Origin: Stramenopiles sp. TOSAG23-2
Taxonomy: Eukaryota
Direction: 5' to 3'
Length of the DNA: 64,000 nt
Assembly (NCBI GenBank): GCA_900128395.1
Contig: LT649237.1
Location: 1-64,000, forward strand
The notes under the pieces: generated by a model
What the model was told of the DNA's origin: nothing
The model's database searches: none
What the model saw: only the letters and a program-made list of their open reading frames with translations
Program-made: the position numbers and the translations under genes
Shown here: in pieces, positions 4,096 through 51,300 of the stretch
Layout: each line of letters starts with the position of its first letter
Numbering within the stretch: position 1 is the stretch's first letter

Positions 4096-7000
4096 TTAGT
4101 TAAAACGATTTCGAGAATTATTTCTTCCCCATCTTCCACGGCCACCACCTCCACGTCCTCGTCCACGTCCACGTCCACGACCTCGTCCACGTCCACGTCC
4201 TCGTCCACCAGAACGTCGGTTATTGTAATTATTATTACGACGATTATTATAATTATTATTTCGACGATTATTATTATTTCGATTGTTTTTATTATTATTG
4301 TCATCTCCATCTCCTGATGTACCAATGTTCCGTGATTGCAACATATCGTCATTTAAGTTTACAAATTGTTCTATCCTACCTGCAAATTGCTCAGCGAGTG
4401 TTTGCAATTTTGTTGGCTCCGTTTGATGTAATACGATGGTTTTCGTTAACTGATCCCACTTTGCTGAAAGTTCTCTGGTAACCATCATTTTTGAAACGAT
4501 GGCATGTACCTTGTTTTCGCTCATTTGGAAAACATTGCACAATGCAGTTTGGGAAATACTGTCATAATGCGTACTGTACGTTAATAAATATACACGCAAG
4601 CCGACTTCTTTAATCAAATCTAATAAACGTGCTTTGACCTGTTCGCTATTCGTTATCAATCGCCAAACACGTTTCATTCCAAAGATATAGTTAGCACATT
4701 CTTCCCAGCTACCAACACGAAGTGCTTTGGAAGCCGCGTGTACGAATTCTTTAGTACTTTCTGGAGGACCATTGAAACCGTTGCGTTCGATACGGTCCAT
4801 CGTTGAGTAGTAATTGATATCTACACGGTCGCGTCTAGCTTGCAATGTTGGTGACGCTTTATATGGCATTTCCAACAGCATAGCAGATGTTAAATGGCAA
4901 CATTCAATCAACTCCAAATTAATATGTTGATGGTATGGGACTAACCGACGCTTTTCTAAATTTTCTTGCGCCGGGTCTTTCTCCTCGTAACGCCTATTTT
5001 TCCATGCGATACCCTGTGCCAATAACTCTTTCACACGTCCACCTTTACATACTTCACCTAAGCAACTTCTGCATTCCTTTAGCAAACCAGCGCGGAATGC
5101 ACATAAACCTACTTGTGCCAAAGTTCTGTTGTATAAAATTTGTGTAGCAACATCTGTTTTGGATATAGTATCTCCAATATGACTCATTAAAAGCATATCT
5201 CGTGCCTCATAAAAGCGATCATGGATTGCATGGTGGAAAACATGGCAGAGCACGGCACGATGTGTCGATCGAGGATCACCAACTTTGATAATATATGTCG
5301 ATAAATTTACCAATTCCTTTGAAACATTTAAATCTTCTACATCAAGAGTAGGATAGCCACTTGCAGCACCAGGGTGGCTCGTTGCAACATCAACATTTGC
5401 ATTTGGTTTTGACCCATAAGTACAAGCTGGATGGAAAAATGAACGATCGCCAAATGTTTTCTTCAACGTTTGAGCTTTGTTCAATGCATTTGCAATACGA
5501 TCATGTTTGTAATACGTGTGTTCCATTCGTAGCAAAGCCATTCGTGAAGCTTCCTTATGGTCATCTTGTCGTTCATAATACAATTGTGTACCAAAAGCTA
5601 ATTCAAGGAACATCGCCTCGTCTTCCAATCTGTTGACGTATTCGTATGTTTGAGGATCAATCTTTTGCAAAGCTTTGGTATATTGTTCCTCCAAACGTGA
5701 AACGTATGCTCCAAGGTCGCCAGGAACATGCAAGACACCATCAGCATCTAAGTCCAATTGTGTATCGTCAACTTCTGCTGCTGCTGGTTTTGCTGTCGTT
5801 GATGCTGGTTCGTCCGTTTTTTTTTCCTCTCCATCTTCACCACCATCATCAGGTTTGGCTTCAACTTTGGTTTCTTCTTTGATTTTTGGAAGCGACTTTT
5901 GAAGGATTGCTGTTGCAGCTATATCATCGGTTTTTAATGCTCCGAGTTTTATTCCACGTTCAGAATCCAAAGCGGTAACTACACGAGTTAAACAACGATT
6001 ACATTCTCTCCAAACGTCTTGAGAAAGATATGAATCAATATTCCTAATACGATCAAATTGTGCTGATACATAATGCATTAAAACAGGGATAAGTTTTTCC
6101 GCACCAAATTTATTAGCCTATACGTTTATATCAAAATGTGATGTTAGTTTATGTTTTCAATAATAAAATAAAATATAAGCAGTAGATATATATGTATGTA
6201 TGTCTAAAGATATATTTCAACAAAAGCCGGGCGCTAAAAGTTTCATCAACCATGAGAACAGCGGGTCTAGACCGCACCACAAGACTTCATTATTTTGATC
6301 ACAATTTACAAATTTAATAAATAAATTGTGTTTTTGTTCATTCTTCTGTACAATTATGGGATTTATACGGGTCATCGCTCACTTTTAATTCATAAAATTT
6401 TAATTAAAAAAAATTACGTTCAAAATGTAGCCAAAAAAATACCGAATCCATGTTTTTTAATTTTTAAATTGTACAGGGGAAAAAAGAAAAAAAGAAACGG
6501 AAAGTTTTAATTATATGTTTGCATTGGTGTTGATCAATATTTATATATATATATATGTATATATATATATGTATGTATACATACCCTATATGAAAGTTCC
6601 AAAAGTTTCTTAATTTGCGAGCCGTCTTCTGTACCACGTTTTCCTCTTGCAGCAATTATTTTTTTCATTTCTCTACGTAATACAGCCGGTGTAAATTCTT
6701 CCTCTTTTTTCTTTTCAACTTTCTTTAATAAAAGTTGTTTCTTTCTCTCTTCCGCTTGTTTGCGCTGACGGTCTTGGCGGTCTTGTCTTGACTCTGATGC
6801 TTTCTCAGGTTTGTTATTCGATGGTTTTTTCTTTAACCATCTAGCACGACCAGTCAACTGTTCACGTTCGTCCTCGCTTTCACTACTAGAATCACTATCA
6901 TCACTTCCATCCCAATCTGGTTCCCCATCAGAATCAGCTTCCACTTTTGCCTTGGATTTTGTCTTTACATCATTATCACTATCATCATCATCATCGTTAT

Positions 7001-7619
7001 CGCTATCACTATCGCTTTTACTACTGTCGCTGTCACTATCGCTATCGCTATCACTGCTACTATCACTATCGCTATCACTGTCTTCATCTGATTCCTCGTC
7101 ATCTACAGGGTTTGCACGATATTTTTCAACTTCGTCAGCAAAGGATATTATATGCTCATTTTTCTTCAAGTTATGTTTCATACGATTTAAACTTTTGCTA
7201 TTGGTTTTGCTCAATTTGGTGGTTTTATCTTTCAATGCAGCAGCTAAATCATCTTGTAAATTCATGAGAAATTTTAAATAAAAATTAGGGATACCATCGG
7301 CTTTAAAATCATTTGCTAAACTTTTTACAGTTTTTTCTAGTTTAATATTCAATTCCAAAACTTGGTTCCAGTCATTAATGCGTATTTTCTTTTTAATATT
7401 TTCGGTAGTATCTTTCAACGCTTCAAATCGTTTTGTTTTACCAGACTTCACAACTCTTCCTTCATCTTCACTATCAGAATCACTACTGGACAGGTTCCAT
7501 TGATTTTTATTGCCACCAATTTTACCTTTAACTTCCTCGTTATTATCTGAACCTGAATCCGAATCAGAACCTGAGTCAGAGTCAGATGCAGACGAGCCTG
7601 CGAAAAATCTACCTGACAT
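4096..7619 (-). CDS. EIF3C: Eukaryotic translation initiation factor 3 subunit C; join(7619..6585, 6117..4096), about 1018 aa
   Basis: N-terminus MSGRFFAGSS followed by an acidic Ser-rich tract and RVVKSGKTKRFE...KIRINDW. It also has IIAARGKRGT, ARDMLLMSHI, QILYNRTLAQVGLCAFR, KELLAQG, VPYHQHINLELIEC, a PCI domain (VSKMM..ELSAKWDQ) and an RG-rich tail. A phase-0 GT..AG intron joins the two ORFs in frame (...LSYR|ANKFGAEKLIPVLMHY...). Confidence 0.95.
6118..6584 (-). other. Spliceosomal intron of eIF3c (467 bp)
   Basis: Donor AGG|GTATGT at 6584, a CTAAC branch-point-like sequence about 25 nt before the acceptor, and acceptor TAG|GCT at 6118. Removal gives a continuous eIF3c frame. Confidence 0.9.
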
Positions 7620-8447
7620 TTTTTTTTGTGTGTGTTTGTTTGTTTTTTGGTTCTTCTTTTTCTTGTTTCTTTCTTGTTCTTGTTTATAAATGAAAACTTC
7701 TGCTCTTTCTTGTTCTTTAGTTTTTTATGTAATATGTTTTATATATATATATATATACTTCGTGTTCCATGTTTTCCACTTGTCTATCCATGGCTATTCT
7801 AGTTATAATTAATTGATATTTTAACACTATAGACTATTGAAACAAATTCATTCACTCATGTGCATTTATTATATTTGTGTGAATTTCTGGTAAATGGAGG
7901 TGGAAATTTGATAGACGTTTATACATGGTAGTATATGCTAGCATTGAATGGACCAAATGACATCGCAGACCAGAAAAATAAAGAGCGTGTAAGTATAATC
8001 ACAGCATTAAATTATAATACCTGCTATTCCCATACTATTTACATTTTTGTAGTCTTTATTGTAGTTCATCCAAAATTCTGTAGCCTAAATAATAATCCAC
8101 CAGCCAGATTTTAGATTTTAGAAAGTACGTATTATTAAAATTATATAGAATATTGTAGTTGGTAGTATATAAATAGATATTATGCGTGTTGATGTATATT
8201 TTTTTCATCCTATCATGTTAATGTTGCCATATGATGTATGTAGTATGAGTATGCAACCCACATATCACCTGTGGCGGCCATCTACATCAGTATATTTTTT
8301 TCTGAAAAATAAAAAAAACAGAAAGTTAAAAGTGTGTACGCACACTACCATGTGGCAGAAGGGCAGGATGCAACTGTGGAAAAGCTTAACAATAAAGCGA
8401 AACAACAATAGAAGAAGAGGGAATTGCGTGTATATATATGTAATATA

Positions 8448-9686
8448 ATGACCATGGAAATAGCAATTATTGGATATGAAGGATGTGAATATCATATGTC
8501 TGCAATTGAAACAGCACATGCAGCTGGCATCAAAGCTATTGTAAAAACTGTGCCAAATCCAGAAGAATTTCAACGTTTTCTTATGTCAATAAAAGCAACA
8601 ACCCATCGTACTTCACCTATTGTTTTTGATATCACTGCTACTACTGCAGTGTCAGGTGTTAATATAAATATGGAGAGTCTTCTAGGCGCTACGCTTATTG
8701 GTGGATGTGATGAATTAAAGCAAAAACTTGGATATGCAACAACAGCAGAGGAACAACAAATGGCACGTCAAATCGATACATCGTCGCGTTCACCTGATGA
8801 AATAGCATCATTCTTTCATACAACACAACGTAGTCATCGCTTTGTATTGTGGGTTTTATGGCGTGGTGTTTGGTGACCTCCATGTCAGCAGTCGCTTCGT
8901 GGATATAATCGACTGCTGGATGATGTCCATAATGCAGGCGGTGAAATTATTGGGATTACCTCTGCACCACAAAGTCAAGCCGATACTGCTGCTAAAGAAT
9001 GGGGAATAAATTTTCCACTAGTGTCCGACCCTTCCTGTGAACTTGTTCTTGCCATGAATCGTAACGGTTGGATCAACAGTGTAGTTGAAATGGATGAATC
9101 GCGTACATCATCTGAAAGTTATTTTGTTCAACAAATTGGTACACAATATGAAATTGGAATGTTGCAGCCTGGTGTTGTTGCCCTGCAAGGCGAGATCGAT
9201 GTCTATAACGACAAAGCAACTAATGAAGATAGAAAAGTTCTTGTAACGTGGGGTTCAATTCCAACACTGGATAATGCTAAGGGTGCTGCTGGAAGATTAC
9301 ATCCACGTGATGCGTGGAGTGCGGTTAAACGGAGCCTTGATGGTGATTTTTCACTTGCTAGACCAGAAACTATTCAAGGTAAAATTCCAATCAATCCTAT
9401 CGTCTTTTGTATGATGCTTATGGCAAATGGTAATTTTATCATGCCTAAAACATTTACAAATGATGTTAATACTGGCCGTGGAGCAGATATTAAAAGGCAA
9501 AGTGCCATGAGAAAAGGATTTCTTGCTCTAGGTGCTTTAGGCTTTGGTGCTGTAAAAGCTCCGAAGCAGACATCTGCACTTCTTGCAGCTTACTTATCAT
9601 ATTTTTTTTTGACACCAGGTGGTCCAGGACAAGTCTTATATACCACTCTTTTTGCTGAATCGAAGGCTGGTACCAGCAAGCTATAA
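8448..9686 (+). CDS. Selenoprotein: glutaredoxin-like domain + AhpC/TSA (peroxiredoxin-like) domain with UxxC, C-terminal SKL; 412 aa, Sec at codon 143 (TGA 8874-8876)
   Basis: Reading through TGA 8874 gives 48 stop-free codons in frame with ORF 9021-9686: VLWRGVW-U-PPCQQSLRGYNRLLDDVHNAGGEIIGITS...WGINFPLVSDP. This is a typical AhpC/TSA pattern (RGxWCPxC ... lxFPlvSDP). The N-terminus has Grx motifs GCEYH, TSPIVF and LIGGCDEL. A SECIS is present downstream. Confidence 0.9.
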
Positions 9687-9890
9687 AGATTCAACATATA
9701 TATATATATCACAAAATGTATATATATATATATATATAGATAAATGTATAAATGTAAGATGGATTACTCAAACATAGTACTTTTTTCAAATTTTTTTACA
9801 TAATTTTTTGAGAGAGAGATAGAATTTTTGTTCTTTAAATATAGTATCACACACAACAAAAACAACAACAATAAACATGTTGCGTAAAAA

Positions 9891-9955
9891 TACATATGAC
9901 GTACACTGCTACAAAATCTTGATAGTTATAGGATGTAGTAATGTACCGAGAAATA
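9891..9955 (+). promoter_or_regulatory. SECIS element (type II) in the 3' UTR of the selenoprotein
   Basis: ATGAC (9896-9900) and CGAG (9947-9950) form the non-canonical core with tandem G.A pairs. Helix II GTACACTGCTACA (9901-9913) pairs with TGTAGTAATGTAC (9934-9946) at 12 of 13 positions. AAA is unpaired at 9914-9916, followed by an apical ministem TCTTG...TAGGA. Confidence 0.9.
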
Positions 9956-10437
9956 TTAATTGTTGTTTAATTTTAAATAATACGATATCGTATGATATGC
10001 ATATCATAAATCGTAAATATATAACGCGTATGAATATTTTTTTTATGATAATATTATTGGTTAAAATCTAAGTTATAATAGTTTTACTTCTCATTGGCCG
10101 TATCAAAATTATTTTTGTTTTATTTTTTCTTTAATTTAATATCTCGCACCATATATCATTATATTATGTACGAAGTATTATATTATGGTGTATTATTATG
10201 CGTTTTGGTGATAAATGTTCTCTCTTTCTCTCTCAATTTCTTACTCTCCGCGAATTTTGCAATATACGTAACTATTTTTTTTTATTAGTTTAATATTTTG
10301 CAAAACAAATGAATGAAATATGTGTGAATCTAATATATACATGATGTGTATTATATTATTATTATATTAATATAATATTCAAATCATAATATGAAATGTG
10401 GAGCTGATCCAAGTTATTGATATCATTATCATAACAA

Positions 10438-13059
10438 TTACTCATCACCATCTGTTTTGGCGCTTTTTTTGCAACAAGGCAAACATGCGCAACAACCAAT
10501 TCCGTCTTTCTCTTCATGTTCATCGTCCTCTTTTGTTTTTTTGACTTCTAATTCAAATCCCATTTTTTGAGCAAATGCTTCACCGCCGCCATCTTCAACA
10601 TCGAAACAATAACAAAGCATGATACTATCGGTTGCAACATCGTATACACTGAAGAAAATTTCCGCAACAATATACGACATACAAAATACAACAAAGGTAA
10701 TTACGAATTGACCCATGCTACTGATGTAATTTTCAGATTGTATATTTCGAAATTCAGCATTTAATTCAATCGCGTAATATGCTGCCATAGTTGACAACAT
10801 CATAATTGATATTTTACCGAAAAGCATTACAACTGCTGAACTGACACCAGTTGCACCGAAACGAGTGAAATTGTTCCACAACATGACGAAAGATTTGTAT
10901 GATGACCAACAAAAACTAGTGCCTTTGATTGTCGAATAAATGTAAGCATTTTTACTTAAGTACTTCACACATTTCTCAAAACAGTGTACGATACACATGA
11001 CACATGCTAGTGCATATTTTAATACTTTATTATTTGGATTAGCTTGTTGAATCTCGTTTGCCATATAAGCAAGCCACCATTTAATCAATTTCACAATGGT
11101 AATGACAAGTGAGCCAAATGCCGCAGTACCTAGATGAAGATGAAAAGTATGGCAAAATGCACCACAAACGCCTTTGCTTTTCTTGCACTTATAGCAACAA
11201 GGTCGTTTTTCACCTTCTGCCAATTGTGGTTCTGGTTCTTCTGGTGCATTGTCATCGGTGAAATACCATTCAGCAACGTCACCACCAATAGTAAAGATAC
11301 CAACAGCTTGCACAAATTCACAAAGCCATACCCACATGAAAAGATCAAACAAACCTAAATATTTAACTACTTCATTTGTCTCCATCATCATTATAGAAGT
11401 TGCAGTAGTTGTATTAGCTGATAGGGTACCATTTACTCCTTTAATTCCTGCTGCGATCATTTCTCCAGAGGACATCAATAAGACCCCAATGATACAAAAC
11501 GTTGCTGAGAAAACACCAATCCAGAAAAAAGAAAATAGTGGCCACATTAATATGCTACTATTCTTAGTAACAGCTTTTGCCGAAATTCGTATCACTCTAA
11601 TTGCATCTACAATCGCGGATCTCAAAAAGAGAATAACGCAGAAAAATACGACTGCGAATAAAGTAAAAATCCACCCAGCAATTTGGTAATATTGTGATTG
11701 TGCTGCATCGACTGGTGCAAAGGTACTGCTTGCTTGAGCTGTTACTTGTCCTGGTAGTGAAATCACGCCAGCTTTTTGCAAGAATACTAGCGATCCTGCG
11801 ATGAAACATACTTCAAGAAGAATGATGCAGGACCATACAATACATCCCGCCAACTTTCCAATAATTATTAAAAAGATGAAACCGATAATCATAGGTAGAA
11901 TCAAACCACAAATAAACACTTGCAACCATGCCTTTTGAACGGAAGTCACATAATTTGAAAAAGAAGATGCAGCTTTAGTAAGTTTTTCTAACATTTGCAT
12001 TTGTGGAATATCTTCAGATATAGTCTCTTTGCGATTTTGAATTTTTGAACATGCTTTCTCTTGCTCTTCCCTGAAAACGTAGTTGCCTTCATAATCTTCT
12101 ACTGGTTCGATCGCCGGTTTAAAACCTGGTGCTGGATGCACTGAGCCTGGTACTGTCTCGATGCACTTCCAATCAAATTCGCTGGAAGTGTTACAATTAA
12201 TTGTTGTTATTGGATCTACACATCTTGCTTCTGCGTGTTTTTTGTCCACAGCAAAATCTGGAACACAACGTCCTAGAACTGATTTCGTATCAACAATAAT
12301 TCTGTCACAGCTAAAAAATACTTTCTTACAAAAGTCACTTTTACTACCAGCGAAGCCATTAGGCACTATGCCAGGATCCACCATTGCACATTTAACGTCT
12401 AGCATTGTATCTAATCCTGCCGCTAGGTTTAATTGAACACTCGCGCGATTTATATCAGAAGTTGCTTGAAGTACCGTCTTCACTTTTGCTTCTGGATCTG
12501 CAGTAGTAGTGTCCACTAAAGGGTTTCGGTCCCATGCCAAATTTGTTGTGGCGGCGAACATGTCGGCCAAAAATTCATAGTCACAAAAAACTTCACCAAC
12601 TTTAGGACATTTTTCTGCACACATTGTGGTAATCATTGGCATTGAGAGCGAACTACTATCAAGTGTGCGGTATGCTGAAGTGATAAAATCATCAATTAAT
12701 CTAGGCATAACACCTACTTTAGCTATATCATTATTGATAGCATGAGCGGAAGTGCCAGCAGCTGTGTTCTCTGCCGTTAATGCGCCACCACATATGTTTC
12801 CTTTGTAGTCTGTTGCACGATATAAAACTTCAGGCTTTCCCATACTAGCAGATACTCCAAGAATGATTAGCCATAAAACGAAGCAAAAGATCAGTATAAT
12901 TAAACACAAAACGTCACTGCAACTTCTTTGATCATATGGTTTAAAACTCTTAAAATATCCAGTACTAGACTTTCTATCTTTACTTTCTTCTCCCTCGTCA
13001 GAGTCTGATGCTTTAGCTAAAGGTAAAGGATTCTTGGATGGCATTTCAGTTTCAGCCAT
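10438..13059 (-). CDS. Choline transporter-like (CTL/SLC44 family) protein, about 873 aa
   Basis: RSCSDVLCL, DYKGNICG, a Cys-rich extracellular loop, about 10 TM helices, HLGTAAFGSLVITIV, CFEKCVKYLSKNAYI, GTSFCWS and DSIMLCYCFD. The first ATG after the AT-rich leader is at 13059. Confidence 0.93.
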   Translation of the reverse strand: MAETEMPSKNPLPLAKASDSDEGEESKDRKSSTGYFKSFKPYDQRSCSDVLCLIILIFCFVLWLIILGVSASMGKPEVLYRATDYKGNICGGALTAENTAAGTSAHAINNDIAKVGVMPRLIDDFITSAYRTLDSSSLSMPMITTMCAEKCPKVGEVFCDYEFLADMFAATTNLAWDRNPLVDTTTADPEAKVKTVLQATSDINRASVQLNLAAGLDTMLDVKCAMVDPGIVPNGFAGSKSDFCKKVFFSCDRIIVDTKSVLGRCVPDFAVDKKHAEARCVDPITTINCNTSSEFDWKCIETVPGSVHPAPGFKPAIEPVEDYEGNYVFREEQEKACSKIQNRKETISEDIPQMQMLEKLTKAASSFSNYVTSVQKAWLQVFICGLILPMIIGFIFLIIIGKLAGCIVWSCIILLEVCFIAGSLVFLQKAGVISLPGQVTAQASSTFAPVDAAQSQYYQIAGWIFTLFAVVFFCVILFLRSAIVDAIRVIRISAKAVTKNSSILMWPLFSFFWIGVFSATFCIIGVLLMSSGEMIAAGIKGVNGTLSANTTTATSIMMMETNEVVKYLGLFDLFMWVWLCEFVQAVGIFTIGGDVAEWYFTDDNAPEEPEPQLAEGEKRPCCYKCKKSKGVCGAFCHTFHLHLGTAAFGSLVITIVKLIKWWLAYMANEIQQANPNNKVLKYALACVMCIVHCFEKCVKYLSKNAYIYSTIKGTSFCWSSYKSFVMLWNNFTRFGATGVSSAVVMLFGKISIMMLSTMAAYYAIELNAEFRNIQSENYISSMGQFVITFVVFCMSYIVAEIFFSVYDVATDSIMLCYCFDVEDGGGEAFAQKMGFELEVKKTKEDDEHEEKDGIGCCACLPCCKKSAKTDGDE

Positions 13060-24187: not shown

Positions 24188-25549
24188 TTATGCCTCTTCG
24201 AAGAAACTATCAGGCACATTTGCACCAATCAATTTACTCAATACGAAATCTACCATTTCTTCAGCATCACGTTCTCCATCATATTCGTCTGGAACGACAT
24301 CTTTTACATTACCTGGCATATATGCAAATGTTGGAAACTTTTGAATATTAAAATCTTGACATAATTGTTCCTCCATGTCACAATCAACGGCGCCAAAAAC
24401 GGTACCTTTGAAATCAACATCCTTCCCTGCATTACCACCCGTTGATGCTAATGCAAATGTTGGTTTTACCTCGGTGCAATGTGTACACCATGGCGCATAA
24501 AACATTAAAAATAAACTTGATCGTGGATCACGTCTACTGCCAAAATTATCATTTGTAATTTTAACAACCTTACCAGAATTTTCTTTCGTTCCCCATGCTG
24601 GTAAATTTAAATTCATACTAGTAACATCTTCGTTACTACTCTTTTCTTTTGGCTTCGTCGGTCCCATTTTACTTGCTACGAATTTCGATAAGCGTGTAAC
24701 TGTAACTCTTCCTTCAAATTCAATACCAATTTTATTTTTATAAAACATAAATGTTGGATATCCATCTATTGCTTCTTCTTGACATAATGCTTTTTCAAGT
24801 TCACAATTTACAGCAATTGCTGATGGCAATGGTGAAAGTATCTCTGTTTGTTGTTGATTTTTTTTTAACAATTCATCCGCAAATGCTGAATAAATTGGTT
24901 GTGATAATTTTGACATTTCACACCATGGTGCATAAAACATAATCATTGCGCCATCTTCACGACTTCTTTTATTTTCTTCACCTGTCCATTCGTTGGTGTT
25001 GATATGTGTCACTGCGCCTTCAAATCCACCTTTTGGTAACATACTATCTTTTCCACGACTTGAAAATAGTCTACGAGGACTTGCAATGTTTTCTCCTCCT
25101 GCCGCCACCTCATTTTCTTGTAAATCTTGCTGTTGCCCCTCCTCCATTCTTTCCTCTTCTTCTTTCAATGAATCTAAATTAGCTTGTTTCATTCTCATAT
25201 CTTTTATATTTTGTAAATATGATACATAATCATCTTTACTTTTGCAGCCATTGCATACAATACCGAGTTCCTGTAATAGTCCTTTGACTTGGCCTAAGCG
25301 TAATGTTTTCAAATCTACATTTTGTATTGGATCATCCACACGTTCTGTAATTTGTGCTGATATAAACGTATCAAAATCCGTTAAAGTACGCGGTCCACCA
25401 TATGAAACAACTTCATCTAAACTATCTGAAAAATAATAAAAGGTTGGATATCCATCAATTTGATACTCATAACATAATCGTTGTTCTGCTTCACAATCTA
25501 TGCGTACATATATCCTCTCGTATATCTGCTCTTCTATTTCTTCACTCAA
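24188..25549 (-). CDS. Protein disulfide isomerase-like protein (three thioredoxin domains plus an ARMET/MANF-C-like SAP domain); 5' end incomplete
   Basis: FYAPWCTHC and FYAPWCEMS active-site regions, plus three copies of the (I/V)(D/N)C....LC....IxxxPTF motif. The ORF begins at TTG in mid-domain, just after an in-frame stop, so an upstream exon is missing. Confidence 0.8.
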   Translation of the reverse strand: MSEEIEEQIYERIYVRIDCEAEQRLCYEYQIDGYPTFYYFSDSLDEVVSYGGPRTLTDFDTFISAQITERVDDPIQNVDLKTLRLGQVKGLLQELGIVCNGCKSKDDYVSYLQNIKDMRMKQANLDSLKEEEERMEEGQQQDLQENEVAAGGENIASPRRLFSSRGKDSMLPKGGFEGAVTHINTNEWTGEENKRSREDGAMIMFYAPWCEMSKLSQPIYSAFADELLKKNQQQTEILSPLPSAIAVNCELEKALCQEEAIDGYPTFMFYKNKIGIEFEGRVTVTRLSKFVASKMGPTKPKEKSSNEDVTSMNLNLPAWGTKENSGKVVKITNDNFGSRRDPRSSLFLMFYAPWCTHCTEVKPTFALASTGGNAGKDVDFKGTVFGAVDCDMEEQLCQDFNIQKFPTFAYMPGNVKDVVPDEYDGERDAEEMVDFVLSKLIGANVPDSFFEEA

Positions 25550-39388: not shown

Positions 39389-42300
39389 ATGTCGCATTCA
39401 ACTACCTCGAAACGAAAGACATTAAAGAGTAAATCCACTAGAAATAATAATAGTTCAAAAGGACCTGCTACTGATGTTCCTCCACATAAAAATATACCGT
39501 CTCACTTGAAATATCCCAATTATCGCAAAGTTGATGAGGCAACTGTTTTAGCTATGGCAGAAGGGACGCATTCAAAAAGTGACTTAAGAAAAACAAAGCC
39601 AAGTTTAATGTTAAAAGACTTACGTGCTACAAGGGATCCAGCTGAAGATGGGGAATTGGTACGACCAGCTCCGCCAGAGATATTGGAGTTTTTAAATATT
39701 GAAGATTACAGTGCACAGAAACAATGCACCGTGCCGTTGGAATATCCACTTTTTCAACCATATCCAGCAGATTTAGTGTTTCGTAATTTTGAACCGTTTG
39801 GCACATACCATCAAAGACTTTATTTTCGCAATAACGACTCGTTTGCAAGACGTGTACGTATATTGTCGCCAGACTCTCCATTCTTCACCGTAAGGCCTGT
39901 ATTTGATGATCCTTCTTTAGCCGTTCCAAAAAATGGTAAAGTTGCAGCTGGTATGGAAGTTTGCTACATCGTTACCTTTCGACCTAGAGAGAAACGTGAT
40001 TATAATTATAGTTTAATATGTGTTACGGAACGTGAAAAATTTGCTGTTCCAGTACGAGCTATTGGTACGAGGGCGTGTTTAGACTTTCCAGATAATGTTG
40101 AAATGGGAATGGCGCCAGTGAAACATACGGCAACAAAAACTTTTTTAGTGCGTAATGTTGGTGAGAAAGCAACTAAATTTGCTTTATCTGCGAGCCAACC
40201 ATTTGATGTAGAACCAAGAAATGGTTTTGTTGCACAAGGTGCTAGTATACAAGTAACTGTTATGTTCACTCCAGATGTTGCACGTTCATATGAAGGAGAA
40301 ATGACATTGGAATATGAAAATGGACAAGTAGCCGTTGTTGGACTTACCGGGGACGCACAAAATATCAATGTGCATCTAGGATCTCAAATTGTTGAAATTG
40401 ATCCTGCATACATATCATTATCATCCCAAAAAACTGTGAAAGTTTATAATCGTAGTGGTGTTCCAGTACAATTTAGTTGGAAAGCATTTGGCGCGACGGA
40501 GGAAGAGCAACATGAAAGGAACAGATTGCACAATGAGTTAAATCGCATGGAAGAGATGGAACGACGCCATTTAGATTCTCAACATTTTGAAGATGAAGAT
40601 GGGGATGAAGATGATTATAGTGAAGACGAAGGGAACAATATGCCAGCAGCAAAACGACGTGAAATTGCAGCATTGTCACGTAAATATAAACATTTAAGGC
40701 GTGCAGTGCAAGAAGATTCATTATTATTTGCAGATGAAAATTTCTCAATAGAGCCTATTCAAGGAGAAGTGTGGGCAAATAGTGAATTGGAATTCACGAT
40801 TACTTTTTCCCCAGAACAAGCTGCTGATTATGCATGTGTTGCATTCTTATCAACCACTGGTAGGGAACAATGCTTGCCATTGAAAATCCAAGCAACTGGT
40901 ATTGGTCCACAAGCATCTTTTACCTACGATGTGTTAGATATAGGTGATGTGTTTGTTAATAGTGTTCATACATACGAGCTTGTGATGGAAAATAGCGGTG
41001 AAATCGATGCGGAATACGATTTACAACCATCCGATACGCCATTTGGTCCTAAATTTAAATTTTCACCTGAATCTGGTAAATTAGCCGTAGGTGAAGCGCA
41101 TAAAATTGAAGTTAGTTTTTGCTCAGAAATTCTTGGAGAATTTTCTGAACATTTTCATTACAGTTTAAAAGGCAGTCAAATTCCTCTTAGCGTACATTTC
41201 AAAGGTCATGTAGTAGGCCCAACTTTTCATTTTAATGTGGAAGACATTGATTTTGGCATTGTTTCGTATGAATTTGTCAATAACCGAAGCTTAACTTTGT
41301 ATAATACTAGTGAAATTCCAATGACATATACGTTAAGAGTACCTCAAGATGGCAAATTTCTTCAAAAAGAGTTTGACATCAACCCATCAAGTGGAACTAT
41401 CGTTCCGGATGGTAAGGTGGACATCCAAGTTGATTTCATTTCAACAACTGTTAGAGTTTATGAAATGTATTTAACAGTAGATGTTGAAAACGTAGGCGAA
41501 GGATTGCTTTCCATTCCTATTAAAGCAGAGTGCCGATTACCAGACGTAACGTTGGGATCTGAGGAAATTGAATATGGATCATGCTTTTTAAGATATCCAT
41601 ATGTAAAAACATTGGAATTAATTAATGACAGTGATCAAAAAGCAAGGTATGAATTCTTACCGCAAGAGGAGCATACGATGATACTTGGGACGTATGAAAC
41701 GGAAGAGACAAAAGGTACCATTGATGCGAGAAGTCGTGTTGAAGTACCAATAACTCTTACATGTGAAAAATTAGGCAAAGTAAATCTTCCAATGTTTGTT
41801 AAAATATCAGGCCAAGAAAGGCCACCAATGAATATTGCATTAAATGCAAATGCAACAGGTCCAAATGTAATCTTAGATCAAAACGATGGAATCAACTGGG
41901 GGCCAACAACATGTTTAATACCATCCACCAGAGAATTAAAAGTAACAAATGATTCTCTTATTCCAGCTCCATTCCGCACATTTATGAAAACCCAAGGTTC
42001 TGTTTTCTCCGTTGATTTAAACGAAGGTATGTTAGCACCAGGTGAAAGTGTTGTTTTGAAGATTACTGCTAAACTTGATGATACGATTGTTCATAAAGAT
42101 CAATTACAAATCATAGTACATGAAGGTGGAAATATCATTGTTCCATTGGTAGCCAAAGGGGAAGGTACTACACTATCATGTGATGATGATATCTCCTTTA
42201 TCGAATATGATTATCAATTTACCAGCGTTACCTGTGAAAAAAGATTCTTCATTAAAAATTTAGGAAGGCGTGCGCAAGATATCACATGGGTAAATAAAAC

Positions 42301-45300
42301 TGTAAAAGAAAATGATGAAAAAGCACAAACGGAGTTTATACATGCTATGCGTGAATTTAAAGAGAAAGGTGATGATAAAAAGAAAAAGAAAAAGAGAAAG
42401 GCGCCAGTTGAGCCAAGTCCATCAACCGCAGTGTTCACAGTGGAGCCGGAAACAGTTACTTTAAAACCTAATACAGGTTGTGAATTTAGTTTTTATGGCA
42501 ACACGCCGTTAACTGATAATTTCTTAGAGGAATTAATATGTGAAATTAAACAAGGAAAAGAAAAAAATGGCCGTCCAATGTTGTCTTGCAAATGCCATGG
42601 TATTTTCATTAACCCCGTGCTTGAACCTTCTGTAAAAGAATTATCGTACGTATATACGTGGCGGGATGGCATGCCATTGACTCAACAAATTCAACCTATT
42701 ACATTAAGAAACGTTGCTGAATTGCCATTAGATTTTGTTTTGCGTACTCAATTACCATTTAGTATCGATACGTACGAATTTAAATTAATGCCTAATGAAA
42801 CGACTACAGTAAATGTTTCATTTGATCCTGGCTACAGAGACGATCGTGTTTCCCACGTAGCTGAAAGTGCCCTTACTGCTGTTTATAGAGATCACCCTAA
42901 ACGTGATTCCATTCCATTAATTGGGGAAATCAACTTTCCAAATTTACAATTCGATTACACTACTGTTGATTTTGGTACCGTCTTAAACGATACCACGCAA
43001 ACGGTTAGCGTCAAAGTTACCAATATTAGTAAAATTGATACAGATTTAAGCTGGACATTTGAAGCTGATGAAGAAGCTGCACGCAAAAAAGCTACAGCTG
43101 CGCGTCCATATATTCCTGTCAATCAGGTATATGACGTTCTTCCTATTCGTAGTTTGTTGCGTCCTGGTGAAACGGAAGTTGTTGAATTTGCGTTTTACGG
43201 CCATGCAAATCGTAAATTCCGCACTACGGCTGTTGGTATAGTTCAAGGAGGACCAGAATATCCTGTTGTATTGCAAGGGGAAGCATCGACGATAGCACAT
43301 AGAATGGATCAGTCATATCTAGATTTTGGAAAGGTTCCATATGACGTGGAAGATGAAGTGAAAGAATTTAATATTATTAACCCAGGACGCGTACCTTTTG
43401 ATTACCGTTTGCGCCTTGATGAACTTTCACGACCGGATATTATAGTAGCTCAGCCAACTAGTGGCAGAGTATATGCAGGAGACAAACAAAAAATTACCAT
43501 TAAATTTATGCCAGGTGTTCCAGATAGAATTATGGAGCAAGTAAAAGTAGATATTGCCCATTTTGAACCAATTTTGTTCCCAATATATGGACATGGTATC
43601 TTTACAAATGTTTTTGTTCAGCTTCCACGGGAAGATGCTGATGATGAAGTTTGGTTAGCAACATTAGAGGAAGCTCGAAGAGCGATTGAGGGGGCTAAGA
43701 ATGGAGAGACTATGGAAAATCAACCACCACTTCCACCTGCAATAGTTCCACCATCCCAAGATGGTTCTCGTCCAGATACTAAGCAATCAACATTGACAAC
43801 AGGCCGTAAAATGATAGCACAGCGAGGAAAAGATGCCGGTGTTGAAAATAGTGGCGAATCTGGACCACCAAAAACTGCTCCTGCAATGTTAGCAATACCT
43901 ATTACATCCAGAAAAGCTTCTGTTGAAACTGTTGATGAGGATCAACTTCCACCAGCAGAAAAAGACGAAGCAATAGCCATTCAAAATGAGGCAAATCGTA
44001 TTGTTTTTATGAGATATTTGTTAAAACAATTAGAAAATAATGCAAGGGCATTTGATATGGAAAATGACGGGTATGAAGATGATGATGGCGATGATCCATT
44101 TTCTGATACAAAATCAAAAACATCAAAGACTTCTAAATCCAATGTACAAGTTCCAAAATTACCAATTGCTGTAGTTGAAGCCCCTAGTAAAAATGCAATG
44201 TCAAAAGCAAAGCCGATTGAAACGGAAGATGGTGGATTATTAACTGTTAGAAGTCAATTTACACCGGATTTTGTTCTAGCAAAATACGTGTGTGATTTTG
44301 GTCATGTAGTAGCTGGTACCGTGCGCAAAAAGAAATTTGTAGTTTCAAATACTGGATATCTTCCTGTAACATTTACCATCGATTCCGGTGGTGCTTCGTC
44401 GAAAGGGTTCCATATGGACCCAGAAAAAGTTAAGAATGTTCCTGAAGGTGAGGATATTAATTTCAAAGTTACATTTAAATCAAAACGTAGTCGATTAGGT
44501 CCAATTCAAGTAGAAGTTCCAATATTTTTGAAAGATGGTCCAGCTATTGTCTTAATCTTAAAAGCTAATGTGACAATACCAGACGTATCTGTTACTCCAG
44601 AGCAAGGTATTGACTTTGGTACAGTTCTATTGGGCAGAACTAAGATTATCAATTTCCAATTGAAAAATTTAGCTCCTGTTCCTACAACTTGGAGCCGTGC
44701 AAAACAAACGAAAAATGCTCAAGACGAAAACTATTTTATATGTACACCAGATGTTGGGACATTAGCGCCAGGAGAAGCGCAAAATATTCAAATACATTTC
44801 ACACCAACTGGCAATCGTTCATATGAATTTAAATTGCCAGTTAAGATTGTTTCAAATCCTAGAGTCAAAACGATTGATTTGAAAGGTCAAGGTAAGGAAT
44901 TGTCCATTATGTTTACACCGTCAAGAGTCAGCCAAGTCCCTGTATTACCATTCGCAGATCCAACTTCTGTTATTGTTAATGCAATCAATGAAAACGATTA
45001 TGACGTTGAATTTTATAGTCTAGATTTTGATACCCAATATGGGGAAGAAGAGAAAGTATTGCGAGAAATAGATGAAGCGATTTGGACTGGTCATATTCAT
45101 GGTGATAGTGTTGTAAAGGGATTGAGTAATTACAATTCTACAATGGTTGTTGAACCTAGAAATGTTGGCGGCGGTTTGCCAGAGAAAGTTTTAGAAAGCA
45201 AAGCTAGAAAGGAGAGAAAGCAACTTCGCAGGGAAAAGCGTGCTGCAAGAGAAGCAAAACGTAAAGCCCGCGAAGAGGCTGTTAAAAAAGCAGAAGAAGA

Positions 45301-48300
45301 AGGTACTGATCCACCAGCTGAGGAGGAAGACGCGGGTGAAGAGGAGAATTTAGATAGCACCGACGATGAACAAGGTGAAGTTGGTGAATTGGAAGTTGAA
45401 GAAATCCCACCAACAAAACGGGAGGAAGGCTTAGCATTAGATGTAGTGTTCCATGGTGCTCCATTTACAAGTTCGGAGGATATTGCTAGAAAATATGCAA
45501 ACGAAATGGGTTTCTTCCCATTAAATCTAGATGAAGTAGTTCAAGAAGCTATTGATAATAATACATTGGGTGGGCGTGCAGCGAAAGAAAAGCTTGGATA
45601 TTCCCCTGAAGGAGAAAAACCGGATGAAATTGAAGATTATACGCTATCAAATGAGCTTTTAATAGCTATTTTACGTGATCGTGTAAATAGTCGTGAATGT
45701 GGAGATGGTGTTGTAATTGTTTCGCTTCAAAGTAAATATGCGAATGAAGTAGAAATCGCTAAAGCTGTGAAAGATGCTTTGTCTACGGAAGCCGTAGTGC
45801 CGGCACTGGAAGAAGAAGGAGGAGGAGAGAAGGCAGAAGATGCAGTCGAAGAGCCTGTAGAGGTTCCTTTACTAGAACAAGCCGTGAAAGATGCAAGTAA
45901 GCTAAAAGTAAAATCAGGAGATTTACGCCTTATCAACTTTACCTCTACGAGTGAAGATGAATTTGCTGAGTACATCAATAATCGTCGCCTAGCCTTAATA
46001 GAGGCCTCAAAAGAACCAGAAGTAGTTGAAGAAGAGGGGGCAGATACCACAGAGGCTGAAGGTGAGAAAGAAGAAAAAAATGATGAAGAAGTTCCTGCCG
46101 AGTTTGATAAAGATCCATTTGAAGAATTGTCTGAGGAAGATATTATGAAAATGTCTGACGAGGAAAGGGCCGATTATGAGAAGGAAAAGAAGAAGAACGA
46201 TGATATGAAAGCTAAAGAGGCTCGTGAATTTGCTTCAAATTTATTGATCAAGTTGGAATCTACACTTAAATCAGTTGGTGAGGATTTACAAAAAACTGAT
46301 GAAGAAGTTGCAGAGATGGATGAGGATGCACAAGCAGAATATTGTAAAACAAGAGGTAAAGCATTATATGGAAGTGCAACACAAAATGTAGATGAAATCA
46401 AAGTGACCTTTGGTTTTGTTGCTGAAGTAGAAACAATCGAGGGAGAATTTGTCGAACTATCAGAGGAAGAAGTTGAAGCATTGTCGGAAGAAGAGAAAAC
46501 AGCATATTTGGCTAAAAAAGAAGCATTAAATGCGGAAACGGCTGGAGAAGAAAAGGATGAAGATGACGAAGACGAGGAAGATGAAGGGGAAGAAAAGGAG
46601 GAAGTGGAAAATTCAGAAGAAAAGGTTGAAGCAAAAGAGGGAGATGCTGAAGAGACTACGGAAGAAGCAACTGAAGAAGAGGAAGCGAAAGTTGAAGAAA
46701 AAGTCGAATTCGTCCTGAATGTGTTGGTCGGTGGTGAATCAACTGAGGATTCGTTATATGATGATTTCTCCAATGTGATTCCTTCGCCGCCTGAACCACC
46801 AGAGTTCGTCCTTCCAATTCCAGATCCAATTGAAAATCAAATTTTGATCAAACCTCATGAACGTAAACAGCGGAGAAAAATTAATTCTTTCAAAATTGTT
46901 ACAATCAGTAAACCATTTAAAATTGGTGAAACTGATACTTTCAAAGAATTAAGCGAGGAGGACATTGCCAATTTAGAAGATGATGCAAAAGCGAATTATG
47001 AAGCTGAAGTGCAAGAAAGACAAGCTTTGAAATCTGCTTCTCGTTGGATCTTGCCTGCAAAGTCACAAATGTCATTAGCCATTGAATTTGCTTCGAAACA
47101 AACTGGTAAGAGTAATTCTATATTGGACTTTGAAATAGTTGGCAATACTAGAACATTTTCCGTGTCAGCTGATGGTGTGTGCGCTGTACCAGCTATTAAC
47201 AAACAACCTATGGTCGTATTTACAAGACGTGCTAGAGGCAGACCGCCTATTGAAAAAGTGCATAAACGTTACGTAGATGGGCGCTCTGCATATGAATTTG
47301 GCCCATTGTTAATTAACAAACCTAGAAGCCTTATAGATGATATTAAAGCAGAGTTTGAAGGAATGGATGCAGATGCGGAGGAAAAGGTAAAGGTGGCGCA
47401 AACGATGGCAATGTTTGACAAACTTTCTAAATTAGACAATGCTGATACATTAAATATTTCAAATAGTGGTGTTTTTGATACTCGTGTTGACTTTACGTTC
47501 AAAGTTGGGGATAATGAGGCACCTTCTCCATTTGTCGTGTGGCCACCATTTATTGAATTGCCTCAAGGGGAAACCAAACAAGTTTCCATATGGGCGTTCC
47601 CTGAAACGGCAGAGCTGCATGAAGATACGTTGGTTTGCAGCATTCAAGATAATCCAGCTGTAGAAACATTCCCAATTGCATGTTTAGGTGCAACTCCAAT
47701 GATTGAAATTCATGGTCCATGGGAGAAAATGCAAAAAGAAGCCAAAGAGGAAGGGGAAGAGGGAGAAGATGCTCCGAGTGGTCCTATTATTGATTTCGAT
47801 AGATTGTTATTGAAGCGTAGAGAGGCAAAAGACTTTTCCATTAAAAATACTAGCTCGATTCCAGTCGCATGGAGACTTAAATTGAGTGATAATTTGATGA
47901 ATAGAAGCGAATTTGAAGTTGGGCCAAGGGAAGGTGTCCTAGCACCAGAAGGTGTGGAATATGTTACCATTAACTTCGAAGCTGTTGAGCCATTTAAATT
48001 TGATGCAGAAAATATAATTATTGAATATTCTGATACTGAAGGTGGCTTGCCTACAGTTGAGGAGCAGGAAGGTGGAGCAGAAGGCCGTATTGAATCTACT
48101 AATATTGACGTACGTGCAGAAGCTTATGATATTAAATTCGTGATTCCGGAATTTGGTAAAACTGCACCAAGCAAACCAGGTAAGAAAGTGGAAGAACTTG
48201 TTGAACCAGTTTCAGATGAAGAAATGGCTGAATTAGAAGGTGGTGTACTGAATTTTGGTGCATTGAGAGTATTTGAACAGGCAGAAAAAACATTTACATT

Positions 48301-51300
48301 GCGCAATGCGGGAGATTATCAAATACGATTTGAATTTGAAATACGAAGACGCTCATCCGCAAAATTATTTTCTATTACTCCAGAAAATGGTGTTTTAGAT
48401 AGTGAAGGCGAAGTTCAAATTACATTGACGTTTAACTCGGAAGCTGAAGTTAACTTGAAAAACAATAAAGACATACGTTGTAGTATTTATGAACCAAAAA
48501 CTGATGAATTTTTTGAAAGCTTTGATCTTACAACAACAGTACGATCACTTTTCTCTACTTTCCGTTTACAACCATTACGTGGTGTCAATTTCAGTGCTGT
48601 GAAATTCGGACAAACCGTGACCCGCATGATTGAACTAAGGAATGACGGTGAATTTGATTTTGTTTTTAGAATTGTAGATGTAAAAGCAGATGACGTAAAA
48701 ATTGCCGATGAAAACAAAGAAGCGCAAGAAAAAGGCGAAGAAGCAGTTACAGAATTGAAAAAAGCAAGAGAAGATGAACAAAAATTATGGCTAAGCAATT
48801 TATTAAATCCGGATGATGTTCTGAATGATGCTCCTCTAAAAACTGGGCCATTTACGATTGAACCGGCGAATGGTGTTGTTCACCCTGGATCTACTGCGAG
48901 AGTGACGTTGAATTTTGATGCTGAGGGTAATCAATTGTACAGAACTCCACTTCGTTTTGATATTTCTGGCCGTGCGTCAACTAATGCATCTGGTCGTTCC
49001 TTTGAAGTCGTTGGGGAAAGTTGCATTCCTGGTATCGATACGAAAACATTCGAGTCAATATTTGAGGAACAGTCTGTTGTGCCACGCCTTGAATTCAATG
49101 AAGTGGAGATGGATGATCCAGATTACTTGGATGGACCAAAACGCATTGCTATGTTTGCTGAGGAAAATAAAATATTTTCATTTGGTGCTGTTGTACCATC
49201 TCAAGCCCCAAAATTGGGTGTCGCTGAACGTTTCAAAATTTCAAATCATAATAAAATCAAGTGCGTCGTAAATTTTGAGTTATCCATGCAAGGTGTGGAT
49301 GAAGGTAAGACAGCGGATGATGGTGCGGCGTTTAAAGTTCAACCGTCAAGTATTGAACTTCCTCCTCATGAACATCGTTACATAACAGTTTATTTCAAAC
49401 CAACTGAAATGCGATCGTACACGGCAGCGTTTGAAGCAAATGTTGAAGATGGTACAGAGCCGCAAACAAAACAGCTACGTTTTGATTTAACTGGGGAAGG
49501 TACTTTACCATGCGTCACTGTTGAAAATCCAACATCAGTTGATGCAGATGGAGCGTTGTTGATTGATTATTCAAGAGCTAGAGCTGGAAAATCGAAATCT
49601 CAAACCATAGTTTTGAGAAATGCAGGTACCGTCCCAGCAACTTTGTATTTTGATATGGAATTGAATAAAGCATTTTCTTTCCCATCAAGAGGACATTCAA
49701 TCACACTTCCACCTCGTGCAACTGAAACACACACGGTAATCTTCAGTCCACCAAATGCACAGGAAGAACCATTTGAAGGCATGATCAAAATGACTGTAAT
49801 GCAAAATGAATATGAATCTACTCGTATCCGTTTGCGTGGCGTCGGGTATTTGGAAGATTTATCCATAGAAGGTCTTCCAGGTGGTAGCTCAGATGAAATT
49901 GACTTTGGTCAATTAGATGTGCTTCCAAATGCAAACGGTAAACAAGTTAGTTTCTCCTTACAAAATGACCAAGCTGAAGTTCAGCGCTATGAATTTCCAG
50001 AACACGATGATTTCAAATTCGTACCATCTGTTGGTCATATTTATCCAGGCCAACGAGCGGAGATTATTGCCGAATTTCTTCCGGCTGCAGTACGTGCACT
50101 TAGTGCTGATATGGGTGAAGAAGGTGGAGAAGAAGCAGAGGAAACGCCATTTGAAGCAATTAAACATTCCAAGGTACCAATACAAATACAAGTCACTAAA
50201 ATTGAGCATAAAGGTAAAAAAGTTGGTGAAAAAGATGAAGAAGCCATTGCTGCAATGTCTGAGGAAGAAAAGGCAGCATACGAAGCAGCTATGGAAAAAG
50301 CACCTATGGAAACTGTGCCAGTATGGGATAATTCCCAAAGATCTGTTGTCTACAACGATGAAGGCGAAAAATCTGAAGAAATTGCACCAGAGCCAGAGCA
50401 TGAAGTATTAGGTGATGCAAAAGAAATTGTACTTAATGTAACAGGTTGTGCAGATGTCGTAAGGTACGAATGTGCGACTAATCAAATTGTTTTCCGTCCA
50501 ACAATGATGTTCCAAACAAGAGGTTATAAATTCACGGTTAATAATACGGGTGGCAACACAATATCTTATGATTGGGCATTAAAAAATAAAAATATCAAAG
50601 GAAGCACGTTGCAGCTAGGCAAAGCTGATCTGGATAAAGGTCCTGCATCTATTGATTGTCCATTTAAATTTACACCGCAACGTGGCAACATACAAGCTGG
50701 TGCAAGTGAAACATTTGTTGTAAGATTTGCACCTATGGAAGTGCCTGTTACGATGGGTGGCGTATTTAATTATGAAGCAAGGGCAAGTATTGAAAATTTG
50801 CCATTCGGTACTAACGATTTAATGCTTGATATTCGTGGTGCAGCACAGCGTCCGGTTTGTCACTTTGAATTACCTGGCTCGGATTATTTAGAAAGACGCC
50901 CTGCTGACATGCCAGGTCCAAGCGGCAATATTGGTCCATTAGATCCTTCCATTAAAGTTATTTTCTTTGAATCGTTGGGTACAAATATTAAAAATACACT
51001 TCGTTTCAAAGTTATTAATCCAACAAATATGGGATATGACTTCATGTGGGAAGCTATTGGAAATCCACATCCTGCATTTAATAATGCAATTAAGAGCGGT
51101 ACAGTGCTTCCAGGTAGACGACATGAGCAGATTTTTGAATACACACCTAGTAAAAATGATATTAGTGGTTTCCAAGAGTCATTTTTCAGATTCATGATCC
51201 CAAAACAGGGCGTGGATCAATTATTTTTGATTGCAGGTACAGTTGTAGATCCACGAGTAACATTAGACCGTACATTTGTTAACTTCGGTAGTATTTTACT

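Follow-up and report, generated by a model that had tools for sequence, protein, structure and literature searches.

The only species from which the UxxC selenoprotein AhpC_b (U, selenocysteine, Sec) has been reported is Thalassiosira oceanica (Jiang et al. 2020, PMC7539508), and the UXXC selenoproteins that Seblastian groups as "AhpC" come from protists and basal metazoans (Mariotti et al. 2013, PMC3753652). In addition, marine bacteria have Prx-like UXXC selenoproteins (Zhang et al. 2005, PMC1088965), and PMC2375036 lists, for diatoms and Ostreococcus, peroxiredoxin and thioredoxin-fold selenoproteins; all four papers are cited here from the available portions of their text. We describe a gene at 8448 or 8454 to 9686 on the forward (+) strand of a 64,000-nucleotide stretch (positions 1 to 64,000) of contig LT649237.1 from Stramenopiles sp. 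TOSAG23-2, a stretch that we call the window. The best explanation overall, which we consider quite probable, is a nuclear gene without introns, from a marine protist, that encodes a two-domain selenoprotein of ~410 amino acids (aa) and carries a type-2 selenocysteine insertion sequence (SECIS) in its 3' untranslated region (UTR) at 9896-9950. The narrower claim that the gene holds a real Sec codon and a SECIS is firmer still, and we make it with high confidence.

Between 8448 and 9686 (+) the frame is open with one interruption, a TGA at 8874-8876, which lies within ggtgtttggTGAcctccatgt. The codons round the break read cgt ggt gtt tgg TGA cct cca tgt, that is, RGVW-U-PPC. The standard-code list of open reading frames (ORFs) cuts the gene into 8424-8876 and 9021-9686, and the downstream piece has no start codon close to the break. 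An earlier reading of the letters alone (the original prediction) had proposed that the ORF list splits one gene here and that the frame runs on into the ORF at 9021, and translation with TGA as U agrees: it gives 412 residues, a sole U at 143 and a TAA stop at 9684-9686, and contains GCEYH, HRTSP, IGGCDEL and RGVW-U-PPC. The predicted length of 412 aa holds from ATG 8448, but a product of 410 aa, with Sec as residue 141, is likelier, from ATG 8454 in the context accATGg. The second ATG is the more likely start because 8450 G>A turns the first into ATA in two of four RNA runs (X3 and X4), and it agrees with the MKVAIIGY and MLAIIGY of orthologues. The gene and its 3' region comprise the following parts.

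8448-8873 (+): coding part ahead of the Sec codon (residues 1-142), which probably starts at the second ATG, 8454
8448-8741 (+): N-terminal glutaredoxin-fold domain, residues ~1-98, with the motifs GYEG-C-EYH, HRTSP and IGGCDEL (AlphaFold2 models, Foldseek, VIA-align)
8484-8486 (+): TGT codon of Cys13, the presumed active-site residue; TGA in the related loci L002, L003 and L004 (locus alignment)
8766-9347 (+): PrxQ/BCP-fold (AhpC/TSA) domain, residues ~107-300 (Pfam, VIA-align, Foldseek)
8874-8876 (+): TGA as Sec, residue 143 (141 from ATG 8454), first position of U-P-P-C (homologue alignment, RNA contigs)
9348-9653 (+): conserved helices that extend the protein at its C-terminal side, residues ~301-402, including LMANGNF and a Gly/Ala-rich helical hairpin at 346-388 (alignment, AlphaFold2 model, hydropathy)
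9675-9686 (+): C-terminal Ser-Lys-Leu, a tripeptide like the type 1 peroxisomal targeting signal (PTS1), and the TAA stop (translation, locus alignment)
9692-9753 (+): (TA)n-rich low-complexity stretch in the 3' region, at which the RNA contigs break
9896-9950 (+): type-2 SECIS-like hairpin with its AUGA core at 9896-9899 (fold, strict pattern, covariation, covariance model)

The TGA is conserved among related genes. One scan of public metagenome contigs gave 13 related loci (L001-L013), of which L001 is a contig identical to the window and the others share 36-60% protein identity with it; altogether the gene is carried by at least six divergent lineages. All 12 loci that cover the Sec site have TGA there (L013 begins downstream), with synonymous change in the flanking Gly, Val, Pro and Cys codons (ggt/ggc, gtt/gtc/gtg, cct/ccc/ccg and tgt/tgc), and in the family alignment coding conservation is unbroken on both sides of the TGA. 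A HMMER search of 1.84 billion cluster representatives returned 257 matches at E <= 1e-3, the best 150 of which were realigned. Among these best 150 of 257 matches, 75 aligned stretches of other relatives show Cys at the Sec site in 68 cases, Trp in 4, Asp in 2 and Ser in 1, with Cys at +3 in 72 of the 75. The same best 150 include 10 gene-called fragments whose last residues are exactly ...WRGxW (two belong to the window itself, eight to other 50%-identity clusters), and many further matches start at query residues 150-170; fragments end at the TGA or start after it because gene callers treat an in-frame TGA as a stop. The public gene calls that turned up for the family are all such fragments, ending at the TGA or beginning past it, and the 19 public proteins found are each named "hypothetical protein" only. 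Two expectations of the original prediction have thus come true, namely that the TGA stands at the first-Cys position of a UxxC box, to which the AhpC-TSA Pfam match across the TGA also speaks, and that standard annotation would split or miss the gene; its proposal to look for Cys or Sec in homologues at codon 143 is answered by the same counts.

The relatives with Cys at the Sec site all have no N-terminal domain, and no full-length Cys version of the fusion was found among the public proteins and cluster representatives searched. One locus, L012 (38-895), holds an orthologue of 286 aa that ends in AKL, has U-PPC and a SECIS, and apparently lacks the N-terminal glutaredoxin-like domain; the fusion is therefore not universal, although only 37 nt of upstream sequence are present in L012, which makes the absence tentative. 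Four stand-alone homologues (P0059, P0101, P0111 and P0132) have Trp at the Sec position (e.g. RGVW-W-QWC). This Trp may be a TGA rendered by a code-4 gene caller, which would imply more hidden Sec forms.

The gene is transcribed across the TGA. The stretch is present in 18 rows from nine studies, 11 of them recorded as RNA; in four of the studies, RNA contigs together cover 8338-9691.

X1: RNA contig on window 8414-9691
X2: RNA contig on window 8397-9139
X3: RNA contig on window 8338-9365
X4: RNA contig on window 8392-9680

Each of the four contigs runs across the TGA without a joint, and the letters at 8874-8876 are unchanged; the TGA is thus transcribed and not spliced out. An intron over the TGA, or TGT, TGC or TGG at 8874, would have explained the break without Sec; the RNA of four studies shows it unspliced and unchanged. 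The contigs end at ~9691 and nothing lies over 9741-10008; the repeats at 9692-9753 and 9847-9880 were skipped in mapping, and the contig ends are uninformative on the 3' end of the transcript. Further on, at 10058-10094, X1, X3 and X4 have RNA contigs of 31-41 nt, with depth up to 380 and loose ends on both sides, which are probably a repeat or a fragment common to another transcript. The RNA carries several letter variants: 8450 G>A (two studies), 8656 G>A (G70D), 8919 G>A (D158N), 9154 T>C (I236T), 9369 A>T (T308S) and two synonymous ones, which are population or strain variation in the sea. The transcript may be common in the sea, because RNA runs from several studies contain the gene and contigs from four cover the coding region.

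The other half of the argument is the hairpin, which had been predicted ~210 nt past the stop (ATGAC...CGAG, an AAA loop and a ministem) and is present at 9896-9950. Its ATGA begins at 9896, 210 nt past the TAA stop; the helix joins a 5' arm at 9901-9912 to a 3' arm at 9935-9946 with 11 of 12 standard pairs and one C.A; the apex has AAAA at 9913-9916, a 5-bp ministem (9917-9921 with 9929-9933) and a 7-nt loop; and the GA of the core is at 9948-9949. A strict SECIS pattern ([AG]TGA, a helix of 12 or more pairs that tolerates a single mismatch, AA 10-14 nt further on, and GA last) has a single match on both strands of the 64-kb window, the hairpin at 9896, against a mean of 0.05 in 20 composition-keeping shuffles. 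It superseded a loose pattern, which was dropped as too unspecific with 24 matches in the window.

A hairpin of the same build (AUGA...AAA...ministem...GA) lies past the orthologous stop in L002/L003, L005, L008, L009/L013 and L012. In these five other lineages the distance from the stop is 62-105 nt and the helix has 10-13 bp, and G+C is 0.35-0.63, versus 0.28 in the window; the ministem is present in the minimum-free-energy folds of four of the five, the apical part being less clear in L012. Across the six aligned hairpins the ATGA, AA and GA columns are invariant, and 85.7% of cells pair, versus 31.6-45.9% with the 3' partners slid by 1-3 columns. Moreover, 12 of 17 pairs change on both sides among the six sequences, and the observed values are matched by 0-1 of 500 shuffles. 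When a covariance model is made without the window hairpin, from the other five species, and searched against the window, L010 and L011 (69,272 bases, both strands), its only match is window 9892-9954 (+), at 38.3 bits and E ~9e-8; for this model the MAFFT alignment A7, in which L012 was misplaced, was replaced by A8. At E <= 10 the model from all six hairpins matches nothing more, whether in the window or in the loci.

Some results weigh against a SECIS and a Sec codon. Hairpin folding in the window is modest when compared with shuffles (z -1.04 with flanks, -2.38 trimmed), Rfam (4227 families) has no SECIS match at E <= 10 in window 8000-10600 or in 8 related loci, neither covariance model finds a SECIS in L010 or L011 (the contig of L011 stops inside a possible SECIS, of which only the start is present), and the 64-kb window has no tRNA genes. 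L010 has no KL end and may lack its 3' exon. The Rfam miss is treated as a limit of the Rfam SECIS models, because both the covariation and the leave-one-out covariance model are positive, and it is on these two that the predicted identity of the hairpin as a SECIS has been upheld.

The protein itself is modelled with confidence by AlphaFold2, which from a 78-row alignment gives a predicted local distance difference test score (pLDDT) of 91.4 and a predicted template-modelling score of 0.76. In the model it consists of a Grx-fold domain with one active-site Cys (C-x-Y-H), a PrxQ/BCP-fold domain with the UPPC box, a helical extension and a flexible SKL tail. The domain that holds the Sec matches Pfam AhpC-TSA (PF00578) over residues 132-200, across the TGA, with 41.6 bits (cut-off 26), and Pfam Redoxin (PF08534), also across the TGA, with 37 bits (cut-off 26.6). 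The redox box is UPPC, not the UxxU of SelL, and the SelL-related NCBIfam model NF040769 has no match to the window protein at E <= 1e-3 and scores 23-50 bits on the Cys relatives against a cut-off of 120.

The N-terminal domain, modelled alone, has a pLDDT of 86 and the order beta-alpha-beta-alpha-beta-beta-alpha. Strand 1 starts straight at the N-terminus of the protein, with no presequence, and in the model Cys13 sits just ahead of helix 1 (H14-25), like a Grx active site. The top Foldseek matches of the model are glutaredoxins (E 7e-4 to 1e-2), and VIA-align places it on Grx domains with Z 8.0-9.6, with other glutaredoxins and N-domains of glutathione S-transferases among the lower matches. 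Conserved in the family are H-x-[TS]-S-P and GGCD, in keeping with the cis-Pro loop and GG motif of a glutaredoxin fold. In one lineage, represented by three related loci, a second in-frame TGA stands at the active site of this domain (L002 1462-1464, L003 2561-2563 and L004 90-92, GYAG-U-SYH), and, judged from sequence, these orthologues would have two Sec residues and one SECIS. The natural exchange of Cys and Sec at residue 13 marks it as a redox residue.

The best VIA-align match of the N-terminal domain (8448-8792) is residues 1-103 of MDH1B from mouse ciliary radial spoke 3 (9d2f_F, "putative malate dehydrogenase 1B"), with Z 12.0, root-mean-square deviation (rmsd) 3.3, 91 aligned residues, 20% identity and profile E 0.96. 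Two axonemal chains, 8j07_S and 9e5c_3i, are also high among its structural matches. From the models, the domain and the axonemal chains may share an unnamed Grx-like domain family.

From these parts a mechanism can be proposed, in which Sec143 would attack a peroxide or disulfide, Cys146 would resolve it to an intramolecular selenenylsulfide, and the N-terminal Grx-like Cys or Sec, with glutathione, would recycle the selenenylsulfide, inside one subunit or from one subunit to another, on the pattern of the Prx5-Grx hybrid of Haemophilus influenzae. Such a redox relay between the two domains, which the original prediction had raised by calling the N-terminal domain possibly the enzyme's own reductant, is a tentative proposal, held with rather less than even confidence. 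Several findings speak against it. The best structural match of the N-terminal domain is no classical Grx; Pfam Glutaredoxin matches none of the 18 family members at E <= 1; and the site is C-E-Y-H here and C/U-x-Y-H/Y across the family, with no CPYC or CGFS. The nearest glutaredoxin to the domain profile in the PDB, Grx3, is at E 0.23 only. The glutaredoxin-like domain with an atypical CEYH site that had been predicted is therefore retained as a fold, by Foldseek and VIA-align, and not as a Pfam glutaredoxin. In addition, the PxxxTxxC motif of peroxiredoxins is absent, the Thr of TxxC being replaced by Sec, and thus classical Prx chemistry is not implied. By alignment, the Sec occupies the place of the attacking Cys of a thioredoxin-type CxxC, not the Prx peroxidatic position. 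The Sec of glutathione peroxidases has this same position.

The last step of the proposal is that the SKL tail would direct import of the enzyme into peroxisomes. The PTS1 consensus is a C-terminal tripeptide of the [SAC]-[KRH]-[LM] type, and the SKL, which ends a tail predicted to be accessible and disordered (pLDDT < 50 over residues 407-412), would qualify as such a tripeptide by its sequence; [SPA]KL ends the protein in 11 of 13 loci. The helical hairpin at 346-388 is moderately or borderline hydrophobic (Kyte-Doolittle 19-residue maxima 1.3-2.3) and is a point on the other side, as it fits a membrane-associated protein equally with a matrix protein. For a peroxisomal location we see the chances as evenly balanced. 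The fullest version of the proposal, an undescribed family widely transcribed in marine protists that carries a self-contained two-centre selenol/thiol relay with a PTS1 and would be the first selenoprotein dedicated to peroxisomes, is unlikely to be right in every part.

A serious rival to the peroxidase mechanism is that of a ResA/TlpA-like thiol-disulfide oxidoreductase, still a selenoprotein, that reduces a specific protein or small-molecule disulfide and is no peroxidase, with the N-terminal domain as a substrate-binding or regulatory module; we give it about one chance in three. The nearest solved chains by sequence are ResA (E 1.6e-5), whose WCxPC aligns residue for residue with W-U-PPC, and the sole NCBIfam match of the window protein is likewise ResA (E 2.4e-4, far below the family cut-off). 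The Sec at the attacking position of the CxxC box, the missing Prx Thr, and the non-enzymatic ciliary protein that heads the structural matches of the N-terminal domain point the same way. Against the rival stands the fold. Residues 107-300 are nearer to BCP/PrxQ peroxidases (VIA-align Z 14.8-13.4, best 5epf_A with Z 14.8, rmsd 2.4 and 138 aligned; Foldseek to PrxQ E 3e-5) than to ResA (Z 10.7). Moreover, the swap of the N-terminal Cys for Sec in L002-L004 argues for redox activity, and a solved Prx-Grx fusion with a recycling Grx matches both domains (1nm3; central domain Z 12.8, rmsd 3.2, 147 aligned; N-terminal domain against its Grx domain Z 9.6, rmsd 2.5, 74 aligned).

A second rival, of similar standing to the first and also short of probable, holds that the family is already described, so that only more members are added here: it may be AhpC_b, or else the eukaryotic AhpC UXXC family of Seblastian. 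For the former speak the AhpC_TSA domain, UxxC, SECIS, diatom host and Cys homologues in prokaryotes only (available text of PMC7539508), and for the latter UXXC selenoproteins of protists and basal metazoans (available text of PMC3753652). The original prediction did not recognise the architecture among eukaryotic selenoproteins; in view of these publications, as far as their available text goes, it is not wholly unprecedented, as eukaryotic UxxC selenoproteins of AhpC type are already published. On the other side, the available descriptions of AhpC_b and AhpC, with which the comparison is by description and not by sequence, give no glutaredoxin-like domain, second Sec or SKL; neither of the first two is described in the available portions of PMC7539508, PMC3753652 or PMC1088965, and "peroxisom" and "SKL" have 0 occurrences in PMC7539508. 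AhpC_b is from one species, versus at least six divergent lineages here, and none of the 19 public proteins is named beyond "hypothetical protein". The literature, searched for selenoproteins that are peroxisomal or carry a PTS1 and for selenoproteomes based on the Marine Microbial Eukaryote Transcriptome Sequencing Project (MMETSP), yielded nothing relevant.

Two readings without Sec are very improbable. That the TGA at 8874-8876 is a true stop or an error, leaving two ORFs or a pseudogene, is how default gene callers treat it and would suit the missing Rfam match, but the TGA lies inside a Pfam domain match and an active-site box, is kept in 12 of 12 loci of different organisms and in the RNA of four studies, and has continuous conservation on either side, with a downstream piece that has no start codon near the break. 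That the organism decodes TGA as an ordinary sense codon (Trp or Cys), with no selenium, would suit the W at the aligned position in four representative homologues, as a code-4 caller would print it, but TGA ends 4 of 16 long ORFs in the window while ORFs of 1000-5000 codons (up to 5023) are free of it, and TGA is therefore no general sense codon here; in addition, a covarying SECIS-type hairpin is conserved after the gene in six lineages, and in L009 and L013 the codon that follows the C-terminal ...PKL, where the stop belongs, is also TGA.

The neighbours of the gene are ordinary eukaryotic nuclear genes (eIF3c, choline-transporter-like, ankyrin/MYND, protein disulfide isomerase (PDI)-like and alanyl-tRNA synthetase), and G+C is 0.30-0.41. 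The eIF3c gene extends over two ORFs, 4096-6078 and 6534-7619 (-), ~455 nt apart, which match the halves of Pfam eIF-3c_N; the upstream ORF ends in TGA, and the gap is an intron or a frameshift. The PDI-like ORF at 24188-25549 (-) has two thioredoxin domains, with WCEMS and WCTHC; it was tried as a further candidate for a Sec codon and rejected, read-through of upstream TGAs giving no Sec reading. At 39389-54460 (+) there is one uninterrupted ORF of 5023 codons.

A gene of this kind is invisible to standard annotation, and protein catalogues of marine protists therefore lack the family. The UxxC Prx-like selenoproteins gain in it a multi-domain member whose second redox centre shows a natural exchange of Cys and Sec; the exchange marks both centres as catalytic and lets thiol and selenol chemistry be compared directly. 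A functional SKL tail would connect selenium use with the metabolism of peroxides or disulfides in the peroxisomes of ocean plankton, and such a link, if true, would bear on how selenium supply shapes the physiology of phytoplankton and protists.

Among known systems, the H. influenzae hybrid Prx5-glutaredoxin (1nm3) likewise joins a Prx fold and a Grx domain in one chain. In that hybrid the Grx domain recycles the Prx, the peroxidatic Cys lies in a Prx-type TxxC box and the Grx site is of CPYC type. It differs from the window protein in its reversed domain order (Grx comes first here) and in having no Sec, the boxes here being UPPC and CxYH. PrxQ/BCP proteins (e.g. 5epf and 5iow) are the best structural matches of residues 107-300, at an identity of 11-18%; their peroxidatic Cys is at the second position of the box, whereas the Sec here is at the first. 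The ResA/TlpA-type oxidoreductases, to which the best sequence matches among solved chains belong, are extracytoplasmic bacterial proteins of ~140 residues without Sec, and in structure they match less well than BCP (Z 10.7 against 14.8). The bacterial Prx-like UXXC selenoproteins share the distant peroxiredoxin homology and a thioredoxin-like UXXC in place of the TXXU of Sec-peroxiredoxins; according to the available text of PMC1088965, they are single-domain proteins with the SECIS within the coding region, whereas the present protein, a eukaryotic one, has its SECIS in the 3' UTR and adds two further domains and SKL. The Seblastian AhpC proteins are alike in being thioredoxin-fold AhpC-family members of protists with Sec in UXXC and Cys forms elsewhere, but in the available text of PMC3753652 they have vertebrate CXXC homologues, whereas the window protein, compared with them by description, matches only PF00578 and PF08534 in Pfam and has no full-length Cys homologue. 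AhpC_b is likewise eukaryotic, from an alga, with an AhpC_TSA domain, UxxC and SECIS, and its Cys homologues are prokaryote-type CxxC proteins (available text of PMC7539508); it is set apart, by that description only, by its single species and by an account that has no glutaredoxin-like N-terminal domain, second Sec or SKL. What distinguishes the present protein from the known UxxC AhpC/Prx-like selenoproteins is thus the fused Grx-fold domain with its Cys/Sec-variable centre, the helical extension and the PTS1-like end.

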